Below are positions 3,500-63,843 of a stretch of 64,000 bases of DNA, piece by piece. Origin of the DNA: Nanobdellota archaeon (GTDB lineage Archaea > Nanobdellota > Nanobdellia > Pacearchaeales > GW2011-AR1); assembly GCA_013329055.1 (NCBI GenBank), contig DUKY01000015.1, forward strand, positions 2,339-66,338, given 5' to 3'. A program made the translations under genes and the position numbers. Below the pieces are notes generated by a model that was given only the letters and a program-made list of their open reading frames with translations, was not told the DNA's origin and ran no database searches. Every line of letters begins with the position of its first letter. The first letter of the stretch is position 1.

Positions 3500-4219
3500 C
3501 TATAATATTCTAACTGTAACTGCTCCACCATTTCTATGTAGATAACCAATATATTCATACTTTATTTTGTTTTTTTTCACAAATTCTTGAAAGGCTTTGA
3601 ACTCCCCTTGTTTCCAATTAGCATGGTTAAAATAATCATCAAATAAAATAATTGTACCTGATTTTATTTTATGACCTAATAAGTCCAGCACTGTTTTAGC
3701 AGAAGAATATAAATCTCCATCCATATGAATAAAAGAAATCTTTTCATTATTTGCTTTTTTTAAATATTCCTTTATACCTTCTTCGAACCATCCTTTTATT
3801 AATCGAACATTGGAGTTAACCTTGGGTAATTTACCTCCTAAATTAAAAACATCCTTTTCATAACCTGTTCTCCAATCTTCTGGAAATCCTACAAATGAAT
3901 CAAAACCTATAACTGTTTTATTTGTGAAACTTGAAATAAGATTAATTGTATCACCTTTATACACTCCAAATTCTAATATATCCCCCTCTTTATCAGCACT
4001 ATTGACCGCATGTTTGAAAAACTCCGGAATGGTTTTAAAACTTCTAACCTTTGGCATATTTTTTAAAATATATTCTGCTGTTTCTTTCGCAGCAATATTA
4101 CTTATTTGGCATTCCAAGTTAATTATATTATTTAGATATACTCTTTCAGTTATTTTGTAAACATATTTATGCAACATTCTGTCTATTCTTTGTTTTATAT
4201 TCATATTACTAATCATCAA
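3500..4219 (-). CDS. TylF / macrocin-O-methyltransferase-like sugar O-methyltransferase
   Basis: GDILEFGVYKGDT, IHMDGDLYSS and ILFDDY are typical of the TylF (Methyltransf_24) family. Confidence 0.7.
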   Translation of the reverse strand: MMISNMNIKQRIDRMLHKYVYKITERVYLNNIINLECQISNIAAKETAEYILKNMPKVRSFKTIPEFFKHAVNSADKEGDILEFGVYKGDTINLISSFTNKTVIGFDSFVGFPEDWRTGYEKDVFNLGGKLPKVNSNVRLIKGWFEEGIKEYLKKANNEKISFIHMDGDLYSSAKTVLDLLGHKIKSGTIILFDDYFNHANWKQGEFKAFQEFVKKNKIKYEYIGYLHRNGGAVTVRIL

Positions 4220-53793: not shown

Positions 53794-53988
53794 TGCCCGG
53801 ACCTGTTCTCCTGCCTTCGCACGAAACTTTATGGATTATTATTTCTACCACGAAGTTACTCGTCGAACCCTTGGGTTCTTCATCCCAGAAATGCGCGGAC
53901 CTGTTCTCCTAACTTCGCTCGAAATCATTTGGATTATTATTTCTACCACGAAGTTACTCGTCGAACCCTCGGGTTCTTCATCCCGAAA
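53794..53988 (-). repeat. Two tandem units of about 97 bp directly 3' of tRNA-Gly, each a T-arm/acceptor copy split by an insert
   Basis: Units at 53794-53891 and 53892-53988. On the minus strand each reads ..CCGAGGGTTCGA-[about 66 nt]-GGTCCG(C/G)GCA, versus tRNA CCGGGTTCGAATCCCGGTCCGCGCA. Confidence 0.9.
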
Positions 53989-54060
53989 TGCGCGGACCGG
54001 GATTCGAACCCGGATATTCTGCTTGGAGGGCAGAAAGTCTAGCCATTGACCTATCCACGC
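53989..54060 (-). tRNA. tRNA-Gly (anticodon UCC by manual fold)
   Basis: GCGTGGA-TA-GGTC-AATGGCTA-GACT-T-TCTGC-CCTCCAA-GCAGA-ATAT-CCGGG-TTCGAAT-CCCGG-TCCGCGC-A. G1:C72, C2:G71, G3:C70 and A73 fit archaeal Gly. Loop position 33 reads C. Confidence 0.8.
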
Positions 54061-54143: not shown

Positions 54144-54269
54144 CGCCCGAGACAGGATTTTGCTTTCAATCACTCTCTAAATTTTTGGATTATTTTTCTC
54201 GTGTAATTGTTCGACCTGCGATTTCAAACTTATTTGAATTTAAGCAGGATTCAAATCCTTTTTAAAAAC
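54144..54269 (-). repeat. Partial copy of the tRNA-Arg 3' portion with a T-loop insertion
   Basis: Minus strand: ATCGCAGGTCGAA-[about 52 nt]-AAATCCTGTCTCGGGCG, versus tRNA GTCGCAGGTTCAAATCCTGTCTCGGGCG. A 17-nt exact copy of the tRNA 3' end lies at 54144-54160. Confidence 0.85.
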
Positions 54270-54344
54270 CGCCCGAGACAGGATTTGAACCTGCGACCTA
54301 AGCATTAGGAGTGCTTCGCTCTATCCAGGCTGAGCTACTCGAGC
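54270..54344 (-). tRNA. tRNA-Arg (anticodon CCU)
   Basis: GCTCGAG-TA-GCTC-AGCCTGGATA-GAGC-G-AAGCA-CTCCTAA-TGCTT-AGGTC-GCAGG-TTCAAAT-CCTGT-CTCGGGC-G. A clean 75-nt cloverleaf. Confidence 0.9.
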
Positions 54345-54351
54345 AAATGGA

Positions 54352-54632
54352 TTTGGAAGAAAACTCAGAAAATTGAAAAAATTCTCTGGGACTTCAACAG
54401 ACAGTGCAGTTGAAGTGATTCGAACTCTTCCCATTCGAATCTTAATGCGGAAGAAAACTCAGAGAATTCTTTTCATTCTCTGGGACTTCAACAGACAGTG
54501 CAGTTGAAGTGATTCGAACTCTTCCCATTCGAATCTTTATGTGGAAGAAAACTCAAAGAATTTTTTCAATTCTTTGGGACTTCAACAGACAGTACAGTTG
54601 AAGTGATTCGAACTCTTCCTATTCAATCTTTA
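54352..54632 (-). repeat. Three tandem units of about 93-94 bp directly 3' of tRNA-Leu (acceptor/T-arm minihelix-like copies with a two-hairpin insert)
   Basis: Units at 54352-54445, 54446-54539 and 54540-54632. Each reads (minus strand) ..TGGGAAG-AG-TTCGAATC-[insert]-TTTCTTCC(A/G/A)(C/C/A)A. Confidence 0.9.
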
Positions 54633-54716
54633 TGTGGAAGAAAGGATTCGAACCCTCGCAGGCACTAAGCCACTGGAGCCTTAATCCAGCCCGTTTGACC
54701 GCTCCGGCACTTCCAC
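54633..54716 (-). tRNA. tRNA-Leu (class II, long variable arm; the anticodon loop UUAAGGC gives a formal anticodon of AAG)
   Basis: GTGGAAG-TG-CCGG-AGCGGTCAA-ACGG-G-CTGGA-TTAAGGC-TCCAG-TGGCTTAGTGCCTGC-GAGGG-TTCGAAT-CCTTT-CTTCCAC-A. 84 nt. Confidence 0.8.
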
Positions 54717-54750
54717 ATATAGTTTTTTAGAAGATTTAGTTTTTAATAAT

Positions 54751-55078
54751 TGTGGAGCGGGAAAACGTTTGACCCGAGCGATTTCATATGCTCTAAATCT
54801 GTTTACGTAACTTACGCATATGGGATTGCGAGTTGAGCAATTACGATTGCAATAAATTCTGAAAAGTAAATTTGAAAAATCGCAAGCGTGGTTGTGAGTA
54901 ACGTAGGCACTTCCACATTTTTGAGGAGTGGGAAAACTCGTTTGACCCGAACGATTTCATAAGCAATAAATTGCTTGCGTATCTTTAACGCGAGTGAGAT
55001 CGTGAGTTGAAAGTTTTTGTCCAACTTCCGATAACCCCTGATTTTGGACAAGGGCTTGAGTTTCTCCGGCACTTCCGC
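54751..55078 (-). ncRNA. Two head-to-tail tRNA-Leu 5'-fragment units (acceptor 5' strand plus D-arm split by structured inserts of 105-135 nt). Function unknown.
   Basis: U2 (55078->54919): GCGGAAGTGCCGGAG-[insert]-CGGGTCAAACGAGTTTTCCCACTCCTCA. U3 (54916->54751): GTGGAAGTGCC-[insert]-GGGTCAAACGTTTTCCCGCTCCACA. Neither has an anticodon arm or a T-arm. Confidence 0.6.
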
Positions 55079-55112
55079 ATTATTCTATTTAAAGCAATAA
55101 AAGAAATCTTTT
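55079..55112 (-). promoter_or_regulatory. Putative archaeal promoter of unit U2 (copy 1 of a duplicated 34-nt segment)
   Basis: Minus strand AAAAGATTTCTTTTATTGCTTTAAATAGAATAAT abuts GCGGAAG. About 30 of 34 nt match 55264-55297. AT-rich TATA-like elements are present. Confidence 0.5.
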
Positions 55113-55137
55113 AATCCTTTTGGATTTGAATTTTATT

Positions 55138-55263
55138 TTCGAACCCTCGCAGGCACTAAGCCACTGGAGCATTAATCCAGCCTAGTTTGATCCGAAGGTT
55201 TTCGCGAACTTTCCCAATTGCCCTTGATGTGAGCAAGGTTGTGAGTAGCGTAAGCACTTCCGC
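55138..55263 (-). pseudogene. tRNA-Leu-like gene body, either incomplete or requiring non-standard processing
   Basis: GCGGAAGTGC-[59-nt insert, 55195-55253]-CGGATCAAACTAGG-CTGGA-TTAATGC-TCCAG-...GAGGGTTCGAA, then unrelated sequence. No T-stem 3' strand or acceptor 3' strand follows. 45 nt match tRNA-Leu with 1 mismatch, at anticodon position 36. Confidence 0.6.
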
Positions 55264-55297
55264 ATTATTATGATTAAAGCAATAAAAGAAATCTTTC
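55264..55297 (-). promoter_or_regulatory. Putative promoter of unit U1 (copy 2 of the duplicated 34-nt segment)
   Basis: Minus strand GAAAGATTTCTTTTATTGCTTTAATCATAATAAT abuts GCGGAAG. Confidence 0.5.
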
Positions 55298-55301
55298 TGA
55301 T

Positions 55302-57440
55302 TTAATTAGGGAATCTTAAAAAGTTCATATTTCGAGTCGAAAGGGCTAATAATTCATTTTGACTATAAAGTTTGTTGTATATTGCTGCTTCTGTTGCAGG
55401 ATCACTACCCGAAAAAATTTCATAATAAGTAGCCCCTTTAATCTTTTTAATACTTTTAATACCTACTAAATGACCATATCCTGTTTTAGGATCCAACTTC
55501 TGAACAATCATATCCCCTGGTCTAAGATCATTAACATTATTGATTGGAATTAAAGTTTTAACTAATGAGCCTGTATTTGTATTAGCTTGTACACTTTCGA
55601 CATATTCTTTAAATTGTTGATTTTTAAGATTTTCATCGTATGTTTTAACAATAACTTTTCCAGAACTAAAAATGGAATATTCATCCTTAGAAAATCTTAA
55701 AGTTTCTCCATTAGCTATTTTATATCCGAAATCTTCAATGTTCCCTTTTTCAAGTTCATTATAGTGATATAAAGCATCAAGTTCAATTTGTGTATCTGAA
55801 CATTTTTGTTCTTTAGAATCAACAATTAAATTTAAAACATCTTTGTTTTGTTTTTTAAGTACTGGAGTTTTAAATCTATTCCCAAATGCATCATAATAAT
55901 AATACGTGTTAGTATTTTTTATTACCGGAAATCCTTCTATAAATTCAGAATAGCCAACTTGGGCATTTCCATTCTTTATACCTAATGTTTCTGCAAAATA
56001 TCCTCTTTGCTTTTCTGAATCAATTTTATAAGCAGAAGATGTATCCAAATTCAAATCATACACTTGGATTTTTTCAGGAGTATCATAATGAATTACCATA
56101 TCTGATTGTGTAGTAAAAACACTATCATCTTTAATATTTGTATAAACTTTTCCATTGTCTGCTTTTAAATTCCATGCTCCATTTTGAATTTCAAATTTTC
56201 CATCTGCATTTATATCTAATGAAATAGGTTTGTTATCCGGAGAAATTTTAGAAATCTCTAAATTTCCTCCATTTACCGTAAATTCTAATTTTCCTTTTCG
56301 TGGTGTAAAAGAATCTGAATATTTTTCTTCAATAAATTCCGGAAATATTTTGTTATCTTTTGTTAAACTCGAAGTAAAACCTTCTCCTCCTAACCAGATT
56401 TTTTTATTTCCATAATTAAAATAATTCTCGCCTTTATGTGACAAAGCATTAAACTCCTCGTCATAGTAAACATTTAAATCTGCATTCTGAGTTTTATGAT
56501 TTATTCCGTCAATTGTCGCATCAGTTCCTTCCAAAACCTTTACAATTTTTCCATTTTCAACTGTAACTCTTCCCATCTTTCCATCTAAACCTTTAATTTC
56601 ATTCCCATCAAATTTAAAATCACTTTTACTTTGATATATTGCTTCTCCTTTAGGAATATCTTCGCCCTTTAGAATTGTTCCAAAATCTTCTGAACCTTCA
56701 GGAATTTCAATTTTTGGCGGTTCATTATTATTAACATTATAAATAACCCTTGAATTAGGTGGTGCTTTAAAATCTCCTTTTCCAAAATCATAAACTCCTC
56801 CACTTTCATTTGTTGTAAAACTTGCATTAATGATCTTTCCTGTCGAATCAATCTCTATAAATGATGGAAGCTTAGCTTCACTTTGCGATTTAATATTTTC
56901 AAATTTTTTACCTGAGATTTCCAAACTTGCATTCTCTCCGAATGTTAACCTGCTAATTCCTTCTTTTTTTTCAAATGTAACCCCTTTTACACTAATCTCT
57001 TCTTTGTTCAAATTTTCACCAATTAAATCTCCGATTTGTACGTTTTCTCCACCTCCAAATTTCATTGCCCCTTCAATAATTTGTCCTTCTCCATCTATTT
57101 TTAAGGGTTCAATAATCTCTGCTCCATTTTGTTCCAAATTGTCCACCTTTTCGAGGGTATTAATAATTGGTCCTGCTTCAGGTGCAACTTCACTTGCAAC
57201 ACCCCTTGTTTCTTCATAAACCTTTGGCATAAGCCCTTGTGCATTTACATAAGTCATACATGTATTTACTTCTGAATTTGGGTCACAGTGTGTTAAAGCT
57301 TGGCTCTGTATTATTTGAACTACTAAAACTATAAGTGCTGCAACTACTGCCGTTGCTCCAATAATTCCTTCGCCGGAACTTGCTGGAATAGTCCCAATCA
57401 TTAACATCATTGCAAAAATAATAACCAATAGTTTTTTCAT
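55302..57440 (-). CDS. Large (712 aa) secreted or membrane-anchored surface protein, function unknown
   Basis: N-terminal signal plus a second hydrophobic segment (MKKLLVIIFAMMLMIGTIPA...IIGATAVVAALIVLVVQII). Gly/Asn/Lys-rich and beta-rich body. 4-nt overlap with the upstream gene. Confidence 0.6.
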   Translation of the reverse strand: MKKLLVIIFAMMLMIGTIPASSGEGIIGATAVVAALIVLVVQIIQSQALTHCDPNSEVNTCMTYVNAQGLMPKVYEETRGVASEVAPEAGPIINTLEKVDNLEQNGAEIIEPLKIDGEGQIIEGAMKFGGGENVQIGDLIGENLNKEEISVKGVTFEKKEGISRLTFGENASLEISGKKFENIKSQSEAKLPSFIEIDSTGKIINASFTTNESGGVYDFGKGDFKAPPNSRVIYNVNNNEPPKIEIPEGSEDFGTILKGEDIPKGEAIYQSKSDFKFDGNEIKGLDGKMGRVTVENGKIVKVLEGTDATIDGINHKTQNADLNVYYDEEFNALSHKGENYFNYGNKKIWLGGEGFTSSLTKDNKIFPEFIEEKYSDSFTPRKGKLEFTVNGGNLEISKISPDNKPISLDINADGKFEIQNGAWNLKADNGKVYTNIKDDSVFTTQSDMVIHYDTPEKIQVYDLNLDTSSAYKIDSEKQRGYFAETLGIKNGNAQVGYSEFIEGFPVIKNTNTYYYYDAFGNRFKTPVLKKQNKDVLNLIVDSKEQKCSDTQIELDALYHYNELEKGNIEDFGYKIANGETLRFSKDEYSIFSSGKVIVKTYDENLKNQQFKEYVESVQANTNTGSLVKTLIPINNVNDLRPGDMIVQKLDPKTGYGHLVGIKSIKKIKGATYYEIFSGSDPATEAAIYNKLYSQNELLALSTRNMNFLRFPN

Positions 57441-60446: not shown

Positions 60447-61394
60447 ATGGTAACAAGAAAATCACCGAGAAAAGGAAGCTTGCAATTTTGGCCGAGAAAA
60501 AGAGCCAATAAATTCTTACCTAGAGTAAACTGGGATGTAGTCAATTCTGTCGGAAAAAGTTTAAAGGGTTTTATTGGATATAAAGTTGGAATGGTTTCTC
60601 TTTATGTAAAAGATAATACTAATGATTCAATGACAAAAGGAAAAAATATTGCTGTACCCTCAACAATTTTGGAATGCCCTGGCATGAAAATTTATTCTGT
60701 TCGATTCTATAAAGATAATAAATTAGTTACAGAGGTTTTATCTGAAAATTTTGATAAAGAATTAAAAAGAGCAGTAAAATTACCTGGGAAGAAAGATGGT
60801 AAAAAAATTGATGATGTTAAATCGCAAGAATATAATGACGTAAAAGTTATTTGTTATTCACTTGTAAAAAAGATTGGTTTAAAGAAAAAACCTGACTTAA
60901 GTGAAATTGGTCTTAAAGGAAGTCTTGAAGAAAAAATGCACTTTATTAAAGAAAAAATTGGAAAAGAAATATCAATTATCGATGTTTTTGGAAAAGGAGA
61001 ATTAGTTGATTTACGAGGACTAACAAAAGGTAAAGGTTTATCTGGTCCGGTAAGAAGATTTGGAATTCAATTAAAAAATCAAAAATCTGAAAAAGGTAGA
61101 AGAAGGCCGGGAAGTTTAGGTCCATGGCATCCGGCAAGAGTTATTTTCAGAGTTCCAATGGCAGGACAATTAGGAATGTTCACAAGAGTTGTTTATAATA
61201 ATAAAATTCTTGATTTAGGAAAATCAGAAGGCAAGTTTAAAAATATAAAAAATTATGGTGACGTAAAGACTGATTATATTATTGTTAAAGGATCTGTTCA
61301 AGGACCTGCAAAAAGACAATTATTAATTACAACTCCCTTAAGAGAGACAAAAAAAACTAAAAAGAAAAATTATGAATTAATAGAAATAAGATGA
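60447..61394 (+). CDS. rpl3: 50S ribosomal protein uL3 (archaeal type)
   Basis: PRKGSLQFWPRKRA..., GYKVGM, and RGLTKGKGLSGPVRRFG; synteny. Confidence 0.9.
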   Translation: MVTRKSPRKGSLQFWPRKRANKFLPRVNWDVVNSVGKSLKGFIGYKVGMVSLYVKDNTNDSMTKGKNIAVPSTILECPGMKIYSVRFYKDNKLVTEVLSENFDKELKRAVKLPGKKDGKKIDDVKSQEYNDVKVICYSLVKKIGLKKKPDLSEIGLKGSLEEKMHFIKEKIGKEISIIDVFGKGELVDLRGLTKGKGLSGPVRRFGIQLKNQKSEKGRRRPGSLGPWHPARVIFRVPMAGQLGMFTRVVYNNKILDLGKSEGKFKNIKNYGDVKTDYIIVKGSVQGPAKRQLLITTPLRETKKTKKKNYELIEIR

Positions 61395-62185
61395 AATCAA
61401 ATATTTTAGACATAGAAGGAAAGAAAAAAGGAACAATCGATTTACCAGTATGTTTTAATCAAACTGTTAGAGAAGATTTAATCGCTAAAGTTCTTGAATC
61501 AAAAAAAATCAAGCAACCTTATTCTCCAAGTCCTGTTGCAGGTCAGCAAGCTTCAGCAAGTGGTATTATCCAGCATCGAAGAAAAGTTTGGAAAACTGCA
61601 TACGGAAAAGGTATTTCAAGAATCCCAAGAAAAATTATGTCAAGAAGAGGTTCTCAATTTAATTGGGTTGGAGCAACTGTTCCAAATACACGAGGCGGTC
61701 GAAGAGCTCATCCTCCAAAAGTTGTTTCAATGATAAACACTTTAAAAATAAATAAAAAAGAAATGAAAGTGGCATTAATGTCTGCATTAAGTGCAACAAT
61801 CAATGCAAAAAATGTCATCAAAAGATATTTAAGTTTAAAAGATAAAAAAGTTGAAGGATTACCTTTCATCGTAGAATCAAGATTTGTCTCATTAAAAACA
61901 AAAGAATCATTATCTTCTTTAAAGAAAATTTTAGGAGAGTTATATCCTTTAGCAATACAGAAAAAAACAATTAGAAGCGGAAAAGGAACAAGAAGAGGAA
62001 GAAAATACAAGAACAACGCCGGATTATTATTGGTCCTTGGAAATGACGAAAAATACAAAACAACTGCTTTTGATGTAATTAATGTAAAAACATTAAGTGT
62101 TAATAATTTAGCAGAAGGTGTTCCGGGAAGATTAACTCTTTACACTGAAAATGCAATTAAAGATTTAGGAGAAAAATTCAAATGA
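61391..62185 (+). CDS. rpl4: 50S ribosomal protein uL4
   Basis: Position after uL3. RRGSQFNWVGATVPNTRGGRRAHPPK. Confidence 0.85.
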   Translation: MKSNILDIEGKKKGTIDLPVCFNQTVREDLIAKVLESKKIKQPYSPSPVAGQQASASGIIQHRRKVWKTAYGKGISRIPRKIMSRRGSQFNWVGATVPNTRGGRRAHPPKVVSMINTLKINKKEMKVALMSALSATINAKNVIKRYLSLKDKKVEGLPFIVESRFVSLKTKESLSSLKKILGELYPLAIQKKTIRSGKGTRRGRKYKNNAGLLLVLGNDEKYKTTAFDVINVKTLSVNNLAEGVPGRLTLYTENAIKDLGEKFK

Positions 62186-62418
62186 AACCAATTGTAACTG
62201 AAAAAGCTGTAATGATGATTGAAACTCAAAATATTTTAACATTTGTATTCGACCAGCGAAAAGGCAAAGAAGAAATAAAAAAAGAAATGGAAGATTTATT
62301 TGATATTAAAATAGAAAAAATAAGAACATTGATTCGTGGCAATAAAAAATATGCATATATTAAATTAAAAAAGGATTTCCTTGCAATTGACGTTGCAACA
62401 AAATTAGGACTAATGTAA
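62182..62418 (+). CDS. rpl23: 50S ribosomal protein uL23
   Basis: 78 aa. KPIVTEKAVMMIE..NILTFVFD. Synteny between uL4 and uL2. Confidence 0.85.
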   Translation: MKPIVTEKAVMMIETQNILTFVFDQRKGKEEIKKEMEDLFDIKIEKIRTLIRGNKKYAYIKLKKDFLAIDVATKLGLM

Positions 62419-62419
62419 A

Positions 62420-63121
62420 ATGGGTAAAAGAATTATTTCACGAGCAAGAGGAAAGGGAAGTCATACTTACAGAGTAAAAAGAAGAGCATTCAAATATAAA
62501 TTGCAATACCCGGCAAATTTAGAAGGAGAAGGAACTGTTGTAAAATTATTTGGTTCCCCTGCTCATACAACACCACTTGCAAAAATTATTGACGATAAAA
62601 AAGTAAATTTTTATATCCCTGCATTTAAAGGAATGATTGAAGGGCAAAAAATTAATTTTAGCGGATCAGAAATTAAAGACGGTAATATCTTCAAATTAAA
62701 TGATATCCCTGTAAAAACCAAGGTTTATAATATCGAATCTCGTCCCGGTGATGGTGGGAAATTCGTTAAAACTGCCGGAACTTGTGCGATAGTAAATCGT
62801 GTTATCGGGGATTTCGTGTATATTGTTATGCCCTCAAAGAAAGAAAAAAAATTCAATAAAAATTGTCGGGCAATAATTGGAACTGCTGCAGGTGCAGGAA
62901 GATTAGATAAGCCAATTATTAAAGCTGGTAAAAATTATCATATTAAAAAAGCAAGAAATAAATTATATCCAAGAACATCCGCTCTTAAGATGAACGCAAT
63001 TGATCATCCGTTTGGTTCTGGTAGAGGAAAGAACATCAAATCAAAGGTTGCAAAAAGAAATGCACCGAAAGGAAGAAGAGTTGGATTATTAAGGCCAAGA
63101 AGAACAGGTAAACAAAAATAA
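62420..63121 (+). CDS. rpl2: 50S ribosomal protein uL2
   Basis: MGKRIISRARGKGS...IESRPGDGGKFVKTAGT...MNAIDHPFGSGRG. Confidence 0.9.
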   Translation: MGKRIISRARGKGSHTYRVKRRAFKYKLQYPANLEGEGTVVKLFGSPAHTTPLAKIIDDKKVNFYIPAFKGMIEGQKINFSGSEIKDGNIFKLNDIPVKTKVYNIESRPGDGGKFVKTAGTCAIVNRVIGDFVYIVMPSKKEKKFNKNCRAIIGTAAGAGRLDKPIIKAGKNYHIKKARNKLYPRTSALKMNAIDHPFGSGRGKNIKSKVAKRNAPKGRRVGLLRPRRTGKQK

Positions 63122-63122
63122 A

Positions 63123-63434
63123 ATGACAGAAAGAATGATATATAATACTGAAACTAAAAAAGAACTATTAAACTTAATAGGTATTTTAAGAGAAGGAGAC
63201 ATTATTCAAACAGGTAAATATTTGTCAAATAATTCTGGTTTTATGGTAGATCATAAAGCATTATTGGCAGAGATTGATAATGGTAAAATTTTCATCTTAA
63301 GACATCAAACTGCTTATAATGATATAAGAGAAACAATCTTTAGTGAGGATGGAAATTTTTTATATTTACCTGTAAATTCAGTGGATTCAAATGAATATAA
63401 ACAACAATTAAAACAAGCAGGTATTTGGAAATAA
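63123..63434 (+). CDS. Unknown 103-aa protein inserted between uL2 and uS19
   Basis: ORF packed 1 nt after the uL2 stop, with its own stop 1 nt before the uS19 ATG. No recognisable motif. Confidence 0.5.
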   Translation: MTERMIYNTETKKELLNLIGILREGDIIQTGKYLSNNSGFMVDHKALLAEIDNGKIFILRHQTAYNDIRETIFSEDGNFLYLPVNSVDSNEYKQQLKQAGIWK

Positions 63435-63435
63435 A

Positions 63436-63843
63436 ATGGAAGAAAAAATAGAAATGAAGAAGAAGGAATTTAAATTCCAAGGAAAAGAATTAGCAGAATT
63501 AAAGTCTCTGGATGTTAGAGAGTTTGCTAAACTTTTAAGAGCAAGACCAAGAAGAACTATACTTAGAAATTTCCAAAAACTTGAATCTTTCATTAATCGG
63601 TCTAAGATAAAAATTCAGAAAAATAAAAACATTAAAACTCATAGCAGAGATTTAATTGTTGTACCGGAAATGATTGGTTGGAAAATTTCAATTCATAGTG
63701 GAAATAAATTTAATCCTGTTGAAATAACCGGAGAAATGTTAGGTCATGTATTCGGTGAATTTGCCCCAACAAGAGCAAAGATACAGCATTCTAAATCAGG
63801 TGTTGGAGCAACAAAAGGAACTAAACATAAGAGTAAAAAATAA
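63436..63843 (+). CDS. rps19: 30S ribosomal protein uS19
   Basis: SRDLIVVPEMIGWKISIHSGNKFNPVEITGEMLGHVFGEFAPTR. Confidence 0.9.
   Translation: MEEKIEMKKKEFKFQGKELAELKSLDVREFAKLLRARPRRTILRNFQKLESFINRSKIKIQKNKNIKTHSRDLIVVPEMIGWKISIHSGNKFNPVEITGEMLGHVFGEFAPTRAKIQHSKSGVGATKGTKHKSKK

Follow-up and report, generated by a model that had tools for sequence, protein, structure and literature searches.

The closest described class to the archaeal units reported here is that of the tRNA-linked repeats (TLRs) of Escherichia coli, which were reportedly described by Egan and Landy in 1978 and by Rudd in 1999. The 178-bp repeats that follow tyrT/tyrV in E. coli include a small RNA, RttR. In strain K-12, the tyrT repeats exhibit a T-stem/T-loop copy (AAGGTTCGAC), a hairpin insert ending in CTGAGT, and then AATCCTTCCCCCACCACCA. 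[quoted passage not shown] Here we analyse an array downstream of an archaeal tRNA-Leu gene, the elements of which are best read as copies, three of them at this locus, of a conserved three-hairpin tRNA-linked element for which a duplicate of the tRNA 3' end forms the base.

The whole stretch of DNA analysed (64,000 nt, "the window") has an overall G+C content of 28%. The ribosomal proteins encoded at positions 60447-63843 look archaeal-type, as judged by eye, and for two window proteins the nearest relatives bear archaeal or Nanoarchaeia names in public records; we take the source to be an archaeon of DPANN type. The host gene of the array is a tRNA-Leu(AAG) on the minus strand (54633-54716; identified by ARAGORN, 50.4 bits against the Rfam tRNA model), in which CCA is not encoded. 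Its last 21 nt read GTTCGAATC followed by CTTTCTTCCACA, and are copied by each unit of the array. Starting directly after A73 of this tRNA, the array occupies positions 54352-54632 of the minus strand and consists of three head-to-tail units of 93, 94 and 94 nt. An earlier note on this DNA, made from the sequence, had described three tandem minus-strand units of 93-94 nt after tRNA-Leu, and alignment, TRF and a k-mer count confirm this. TRF reports a period of 94 with 3.1 copies, 91% matches and a score of 462 (54354-54643), and the window contains three occurrences of the 17-mer GTTCGAATCACTTCAAC, where 0.07 would be expected. Neither the k-mer count nor our covariance model R1 revealed any further copy of the Leu-type unit within the 64-kb window.

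Each Leu unit is composed of a T-loop copy (GTTCGAATC, tRNA nt 53-61) and a copy of nt 62-73, split exactly at the 61/62 junction by a 53-nt cassette of two hairpins. A short spacer lies 5' of the T-loop copy, and a third hairpin arises where its motif GAUUCGAAY pairs with that copy; in single-sequence folding and in RNAalifold, this hairpin (GATTCGAAT/GTTCGAATC) bridges each unit junction. Unit 1 (54540-54632, minus strand, 93 nt; R1 score of 87.2 bits at 54540-54613) exhibits the spacer TAAAGATTGAATAGGAAGA (54614-54632), the T-loop copy (54605-54613), hairpin 1 (54579-54604), hairpin 2 (54552-54578) and the tail TTTTCTTCCACA (54540-54551), identical to tRNA nt 62-73 at 11 of 12 positions. 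Unit 2 (54446-54539, minus strand, 94 nt; 85.1 bits) has the same parts: a spacer including GATTCGAAT (54520-54539), the T-loop copy (54511-54519), hairpin 1 (54485-54510), hairpin 2 (54458-54484) and the tail TTTTCTTCCGCA (54446-54457; identity of 10/12). In unit 3 (54352-54445, minus strand, 94 nt; 81.6 bits) the T-loop copy is at 54417-54425, hairpin 1 at 54391-54416, hairpin 2 at 54364-54390 and the tail TTTTCTTCCAAA at 54352-54363.

The details of these units agree with what had been noticed earlier. The unit 3' ends align as TTTCTTCCACA, TTTCTTCCGCA and TTTCTTCCAAA. The stem of hairpin 1 (CTTCAAC-N10-GTTGAAG) is invariant; the one difference falls within its loop, which reads TGTACTGTCT in unit 1 but TGCACTGTCT in the other two. 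The arms of hairpin 2 are CAAAGAAT/ATTCTTTG in the first unit, CAGAGAAT/ATTCTCTG in the second and CAGAGAAT/ATTTTCTG in the third, with a G:C to A:T double change in unit 1 and a minus-strand G.T pair in unit 3. The loop of hairpin 2 varies among the three units, and in unit 3 it is inverted: its sequence, TTTTTCA, is exactly the unit 1 loop (TGAAAAA) in reverse complement.

Trailers of this kind are not restricted to tRNA-Leu: all three tRNA genes of the 64-kb window (Leu, Arg and Gly) have trailers ending in a copy of their own 3' end. The tRNA-Arg(CCT) gene (54270-54344, minus strand) begins 7 nt downstream of the array. It is followed by a "type II" trailer unit of 126 nt (54144-54269, minus strand; repeat D12), found in one copy here and in one to three copies in sister strains, which runs from GCAGGTCGAAC, covering the 5' strand of the T-stem and the first part of the T-loop, through an insert akin to the Gly module, to AAAATCCTGTCTCGGGCG, the tRNA-Arg 3' end. 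The tRNA-Gly(TCC) gene (53989-54060, minus strand) is followed by two type II units of 97 and 98 nt (53794-53988, minus strand; TRF period 98, score 345), in the order GGGATGAAGAACCCGAGGGTTCGAC, a module ACTTCG-TGGTAGAA...-CGAAGT, and GGTCCGCGCA (the tRNA-Gly 3' end). On the other side of tRNA-Leu, three upstream units U1-U3 (54719-55265, minus strand) each begin with ATGYGGAAGTGCC, the 5' end of tRNA-Leu. These units are copies of the tRNA that have been truncated or rearranged, and are part of the array's unstable locus.

Related units were searched for in metagenome contigs with a pattern made of the T-loop copy and the base of hairpin 1 (GTTCGAATCACTTCAA-N12-TTGA), which matched 32 loci. 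Three of these (L107, L110 and L117) exhibit neither a second hairpin nor a tRNA tail, look like coding sequence, and were set aside. The cassette follows at least 16 different tRNA genes, namely those for Leu (four anticodons), Glu (two anticodons), Gly, Lys and Arg, on AT-rich archaeal contigs that are DPANN-like. The layout in 16 hosts is a spacer, GTTCGAATC, a cassette of 48-55 nt and nucleotides 62-73 of the host tRNA, and the identity to the host runs on for 1-18 nt past the tRNA end. When compared with its own host, the tail matches at 12 of 12 positions in most units and at 10-11 of 12 in the remainder. A locus contains one to four units, and an intact tRNA precedes the unit in every identifiable case. 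All strong covariance-model matches with an identifiable tRNA are downstream of it and on the same strand; the orientation in the tRNA direction that had been claimed for the window array therefore holds throughout the family. Hairpin 1 exhibits a near-invariant base (ACUUCAA...UUGAAGU), an apparent invariance to which the search pattern contributed, as it demanded the hairpin-1 base itself; hairpin 2 is conserved in structure and free in sequence. In the tRNA-Arg unit of contig L111, the T-loop copy tracks the host variant TTCAAAT, and the junction hairpin has a matching change in its upstream arm.

No description of this archaeal family was found in Rfam 15 or in the literature searched, and Rfam searches at relaxed thresholds with three loci returned no family for the units. 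In a genome collection not including the window genome, the pattern GGAAGNGTTCRAATC-N45-75-TTCTTCC matched no DPANN contig; the 57 bacterial and two methanogen-type archaeal loci from that scan were taken as chance matches by their record titles only. Two contigs (L002 and L113) end at these repeat arrays, and a third (L067) has a run of N within its Leu array.

Three sister lineages of the window organism were found through a small ORF beside the Gly array, with 11-19% difference between them at four-fold degenerate sites. Copy number varies by lineage: Leu arrays contain two, three or more units and Arg arrays one to three, and one sister lineage has the inner 57-nt module of its Gly unit four times over. 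Ten distinct Leu units were found in these three lineages, combining two junction types with two hairpin-1 types in mosaic fashion. As judged by the synteny of the CofD homologue, the nearest relatives outside this group (60-68% identity) have no adjoining tRNA cluster. The tRNA cluster is also absent beside more distant DUF4846 homologues, where the tRNAs have no downstream copy of the tail.

The earlier note had read the stem substitutions as compensatory. The three window copies alone give this claim little weight (one double change and one G.U pair), but in the wider family it is strongly borne out. A MAFFT alignment of 25 family members, which is not fitted to structure, exhibits 50 double-change cells over nine pairs against 19.5 ± 4.4 in shuffles. 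Its covariation score is 0.245 against 0.104 in shuffles, with none of 500 shuffles as high, and falls to at most 0.113 in a control where the 3' partner is slid by 1-3 columns. In an alignment of 35 distinct copies fitted to the covariance model, which for that reason leans towards structure, double changes occur in 16 of 21 stem pairs, and on each of the five measures none of 500 shuffles is as high. Among the ten sister-lineage Leu variants, two pairs exhibit double changes and one a G.U; the hairpin-2 pair 62-83 is broken (A.G) in four of the ten. Uncompensated stem changes in further copies, which had been named in advance as evidence against a selected structure, are seen at one position (CTCTG to CTCGG), while the bulk of the stems covary.

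The second part of that claim, that the pairing is specific to the minus-strand RNA, did not survive. On the tRNA-sense strand the family exhibits 21 G.U against 38 A.C cells, and 21 of these 38 correspond to one conserved C.A at the hairpin-2 base, which is a U.G on the opposite strand. Wobble pairs do not identify the strand. Single units fold with z-scores of about -2.6 to -2.8 relative to shuffles, equally on both strands, and the whole array with a z-score of -5.1. Given the equal folding energies and the unbiased wobble pairs, the hairpins may also act as DNA.

Evidence for selection on the hairpins comes from loci with shared gene order. The order RNase Z-like, S8e, TFB, tRNA-Leu, unit is common to L097 and L111 (the name RNase Z-like being assigned by eye from sequence), and L120 exhibits TFB, tRNA-Leu, unit. 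Protein identity among these three syntenic loci is only 58-86%. L111 and L120 nevertheless have the same hairpin 1, from which that of L097 departs at a single position; hairpin 2 is almost wholly changed, with its pairing kept. In the face of such protein divergence, the near-unchanged hairpin 1 and the kept pairing of hairpin 2 argue for purifying selection rather than neutral debris.

Taking together the observed architecture, host-matched tail, covariation, distribution and copy-number dynamics, we favour, with a probability of roughly 0.5, the reading that the array represents three tandem copies of an archaeal tRNA-linked repeat, a selected and co-transcribed trailer element that spreads by DNA recombination. 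Since tRNA-Arg lies 7 nt from the array, with no room for a promoter of its own, the array is probably inside a Leu-to-Arg transcript. Judging by this geometry only, transcription very probably reads through from tRNA-Leu to tRNA-Arg, and the array would be carried within their common precursor. It would be released by an RNase Z cut after A73 of tRNA-Leu and by the 5'-end maturation of tRNA-Arg, and its three hairpins would fold it into a compact trailer RNA. As the tail and the bases just past it reproduce the 3' context of the tRNA itself, the 3' end of a unit is probably formed like a tRNA 3' end. The conserved hairpin 1 and the T-loop motif are together a probable protein-binding site. 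Units may multiply and shrink through unequal recombination or slippage between the repeated T-loop/tail segments. As for the host-derived sequence on either side of the cassette, DNA duplication or recombination accounts for it more simply than selection on RNA.

The main rival to this reading gives the DNA a larger part. It regards the unit as a non-autonomous att-like cassette of about 80 nt, inserted by a recombinase at tRNA 3' ends: the tail would be the duplicated att core, the hairpins a recombination-site structure and the RNA incidental, and arrays would arise by repeated insertion or unequal crossing-over. We consider it possible, if on balance unlikely. T-loops are said, after Williams in 2002, to be an integrase crossover site, and the boundary of the cassette is at or beside the T-loop; a simple att recombination, however, would keep the T-loop and the tail contiguous rather than split. 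Direct repeats of the tRNA 3' end lie on both sides of the inserted segment, but they range in length from 12 to 30 nt, which does not resemble the target-site duplication of a transposase. An identical hairpin-1 type is found after different tRNAs, and one tRNA type is followed by different hairpin-1 types in different contigs (for instance Glu-CTC in L115 and L128). The strain-to-strain differences in copy number point the same way. The unit of L111 is followed at a distance of 94 nt by the start of a gene for a tyrosine integrase (PF00589) and, farther along, by one for a reverse transcriptase, and L098 contains a head-to-head inverted unit pair sharing a TTCGAA palindrome; the integrase neighbour and the inverted pairs fit a mobile DNA element and count against the trailer-RNA reading. 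Partial tRNA genes in archaea are, moreover, commonly the product of integrating elements (PMC9897764, PMC3293823).

Against these observations, no integrase is found among the called genes around the window locus, nor in most other loci of the family, and the unit is far below the size of any known integrative element. The family pattern has no match in 2.9 million viral contigs, where searches with the 17-mer of the unit, the 3' end of tRNA-Leu, the module of the Gly and Arg units and the motif of the upstream units likewise yielded either nothing or chance matches in coding regions (L065, L090). At the syntenic loci, a constant hairpin 1 beside a hairpin 2 that diverged with compensation looks like long vertical descent under differential constraint rather than recent spread.

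The earlier note had interpreted each unit as the acceptor/T-arm top half of a tRNA carrying an insert. In its full form, this proposal predicts a minihelix cut by RNase P and RNase Z into a CCA-tailed small RNA, which we regard as improbable. The T-loop copy and the 3' strands of the T and acceptor stems are indeed present; the minihelix itself is not. The acceptor helix reduces to GGAAGA/TCTTCC, found in the minimum-free-energy fold of unit 1 of the window lineage: these are the only pairs, 6 bp shifted by one against the 7 bp required, and the positions equivalent to pairs 1:72 and 2:71 (the latter being column pair 16-96) are open in nine of the ten sister-lineage variants. A 5-bp T-stem around the T-loop copy could be given by AAGAG/C..TTTT, but the T-loop sequence lies 53 nt from the 3' strand, and in the L097 and L108 units the flanks of the T-loop copy are not complementary, so that the T-stem is not kept. 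The tyrT repeats of E. coli have a 5' segment GGGGAAGG complementary to the tail CCTTCCCC, yet most other archaeal hosts lack such a segment: the position of GGGAAGA reads GAGGAGA, GAGAACAA, AGCCGG and others, regardless of the host acceptor stem. GGGAAGA, taken for the 5' acceptor strand, is really the loop of the junction hairpin and mismatches the host tRNA in relatives. Consistently, the RNAalifold consensus fold of the Leu units is one of three consecutive hairpins with no closing acceptor-like helix, in which GTTCGAATC pairs with the upstream GATTCGAAT and not as a T-loop. The Rfam tRNA model does not match the units at E-values up to 10. The Leu unit is not a minihelix, and its hairpins are real and selected.

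A purely neutral origin, from decayed tandem duplicates of tRNA-Leu or from att scars whose hairpins are kept by template-switch mutation in palindromes, is less probable still. Rearranged tRNA-Leu pieces do abound at the locus, GGAAGAGTTCGAATC would result from a deletion running from the AAG in GGAAG to the AAGAG in a T-stem variant, and the inversion of the hairpin-2 loop is a DNA-level event. The divergence of Leu units between sister lineages (5-7%) is also about that of neighbouring intergenic spacers. On the scale of the whole family, however, a cassette with covarying stems and a host-matched tail is kept in contigs whose proteins are only 58-86% identical, which disfavours a neutral origin since neutral sequence would be erased, and the same precise 61/62 junction recurs in 16 hosts.

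The least probable of the developed alternatives, and in our view a very doubtful one, is that the units are intron-bearing 3' exons to be joined to upstream 5' fragments or to a tRNA body. T-loop introns occur in some archaea, and the cassette is placed at the site of such introns. The upstream 5' fragments end at GGTTCGAA, and the A71/G71 variation of the unit tails parallels a T2/C2 variation in these fragments. Yet no BHB motif (a 4-bp helix with 3-nt bulges) is seen at the 61/62 junctions by inspection, the anticodon loops of the 5' fragments read AAT, AAA and similar with stem mismatches, and of 17 host loci no more than 4 have 5' copies upstream. An intact tRNA always stands ahead of the unit, which itself has neither D nor anticodon arm. 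Other candidates were set aside: C/D box sRNA (boxes absent from the Leu units, the sole Rfam trace being a sub-threshold 16-bit sR45 match in a Gly unit), a retroelement primer-binding site (instead of being complementary to the tRNA end, the tail repeats it, and it lacks a CCA complement), an IS200/IS605-type mini-element (the hairpins abut the junctions rather than lying 10-20 nt inside), an integron attC (core sites do not fit), an intrinsic terminator (hairpin 2 is followed merely by a T4 run) and CRISPR (no spacers).

For the annotation of DPANN genomes, the tRNA-linked repeat deserves attention in its own right, as its units break assemblies (L002, L113, L067) and can be mistaken for tRNA fragments. 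Compared with known systems, it recalls att remnants and CIMEs in being a direct repeat of the tRNA 3' part after an intact tRNA, with a strain-variable arrangement and, in L111, an adjoining integrase. Here, however, the repeat is interrupted by a conserved structured cassette and flanks about 80 nt of gene-free sequence, and most loci are without an integrase, as the viral contigs are without a match. REP, BIME and other palindromic extragenic repeats are likewise short, conserved hairpin units that cluster at the 3' ends of genes in tandem or inverted order, with covarying stems and variable loops. The archaeal units differ from them in being tied to tRNA 3' ends with a host-specific tail, and are not dispersed in the 64-kb window; all identifiable metagenome copies are at tRNA 3' ends, which is not the distribution of a dispersed REP or MITE repeat, and we know of no RAYT-type transposase for them. 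With the non-canonical introns and split tRNAs of archaea they share the occurrence of related inserts, in different tRNA species, at one set position close to the T-loop, but the insert is in a 3' fragment, follows an intact insert-free gene and, by inspection, is without a BHB.

The E. coli TLRs remain the nearest parallel. Like them, the archaeal units lie directly downstream of a tRNA (or, in E. coli, a 5S rRNA) on the same strand, with few copies per locus (one to five in E. coli, one to four in the archaeal family), and the split-T-loop layout is common to the tyrT repeats and the archaeal units. The tyrT 5' segment GGGGAAGG can pair with its tail as GGGAAGA does in the window, and two short motifs recur: GGATGAGAA in the spacers of L120, L121 and L108, and TTCGAGCGAA..GAGAAC in the window Gly units. 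Beyond such short motifs, no alignable homology of the two sets as a whole was shown. The E. coli tail is of 18-19 nt with CCA, whereas the archaeal tail is of 12 nt with no encoded CCA; the insert, in the E. coli copies read here, is of about 65-70 nt (in units of about 178 nt) against about 53 nt with two covarying hairpins; and the split is at about 58/59 against 61/62. The archaeal family, furthermore, belongs to another domain of life and extends over many contigs of varied G+C content. That the archaeal units form a functional, previously undescribed class, the counterpart of the TLRs with one mechanism in both domains, is a tentative proposal that we would on balance not expect to hold; if true, the shared mechanism would be either an RNA exploiting the tRNA 3'-end machinery or a T-loop-specific recombination cassette. 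In either case, the archaeal family opens the TLR question to comparative and biochemical study (of a hairpin-1 protein, of RNA release, of a recombinase), for it brings to a layout found in very different organisms dozens of diverged copies, covariation, a defined 61/62 junction and a host-tracking tail.

Comparison of the lineage represented by the locus L091 with the window (55302-57440) places a breakpoint of recombination between lineages within the tRNA cluster. This lineage matches the window at 100% identity in its DUF4846 gene and its upstream units, while the genes that flank the tRNA cluster on the side away from DUF4846 diverge by 3-4%.

The upstream units, partial copies of tRNA-Leu located at 54719-55265 on the minus strand, number three in the window versus four or five in the sister strains (the corresponding regions of L067/L068 and L072/L076). 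Every copy opens with the 5' end of tRNA-Leu. In some upstream units the D-loop is interrupted by about 125 nt of inserted sequence; some extend through the anticodon and variable arms and terminate at GGTTCGAA. Their anticodon loops exhibit AAT, AAA, AAG or CAA. The upstream units look like rearranged pseudogenes, variable in number from strain to strain. Independent assemblies are interrupted at the trailer arrays, which consist of repeats 3' of the tRNAs: L002 stops near the Gly trailer array, L113 terminates within the Leu array, and L067 carries a run of N within the latter. Copy numbers derived from short-read assemblies should accordingly be read with caution.

The tRNA-Leu gene of the window (54633-54716) exhibits the anticodon AAG, as it does in all three sister lineages; this A34 is unusual for archaea, which normally have G34. 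In the locus L076, tRNA-Leu (3787-3872) begins with GCGGAAG and ends with CTTCCAC, leaving a C2.A71 mismatch. This reflects either a recombined tRNA 3' end and unit tail, or a chimeric metagenome assembly across the repeats. Within the Leu array, the loop of hairpin 2 (the second hairpin of the cassette) reads TTTTTCA in unit 3, the exact reverse complement of TGAAAAA in unit 1 (window 54364-54390 versus 54552-54578). This difference looks like a DNA-level flip of the loop between its inverted arms. The T-stem of tRNA-Arg has undergone a compensated change to GAAGG/CCTTT in two loci (L070, 3-79; L091, about 3729-3803), and the trailer unit of the same tRNA retains GCAGG...CCTGT. Accordingly, the Arg trailer has not been continuously homogenised with its tRNA.

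A second cassette type, ACTTCG-TGGTAGAAnnAATAATCC...-CGAAGT, interrupts the T-loop copy on the minus strand of both the Gly trailer (window 53794-53988) and the Arg trailer (54144-54269). It is also found 3' of tRNA-Lys in an unrelated contig (L098, 1820-1925), and its 57-nt inner module occurs on its own four times in L091 (4080-4460). The contig L098 further contains units in inverted orientation (1965-2258), one of them head-to-head with a forward unit and sharing a TTCGAA palindrome with it; the tails of the inverted units match none of the tRNAs found in that locus. In another locus (L111, 6719-10238), a tyrosine integrase gene is located 94 nt 3' of a unit; beyond it come an unknown ORF and then a reverse transcriptase gene on the opposite strand. 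This region may represent an element that inserted itself at the tail of the unit.

The tRNA-linked repeats of the E. coli K-12 tyrT locus (1286709-1287540) share GGATGAGAA, 5' of the T-loop copy, with the archaeal spacers of three compared loci (L120, L121 and L108), and TTCGAGCGAA..GAGAAC with the Gly units of the window (53892-53988). These short motifs common to E. coli and archaeal repeats may result from chance or from joint derivation from tRNA sequence.
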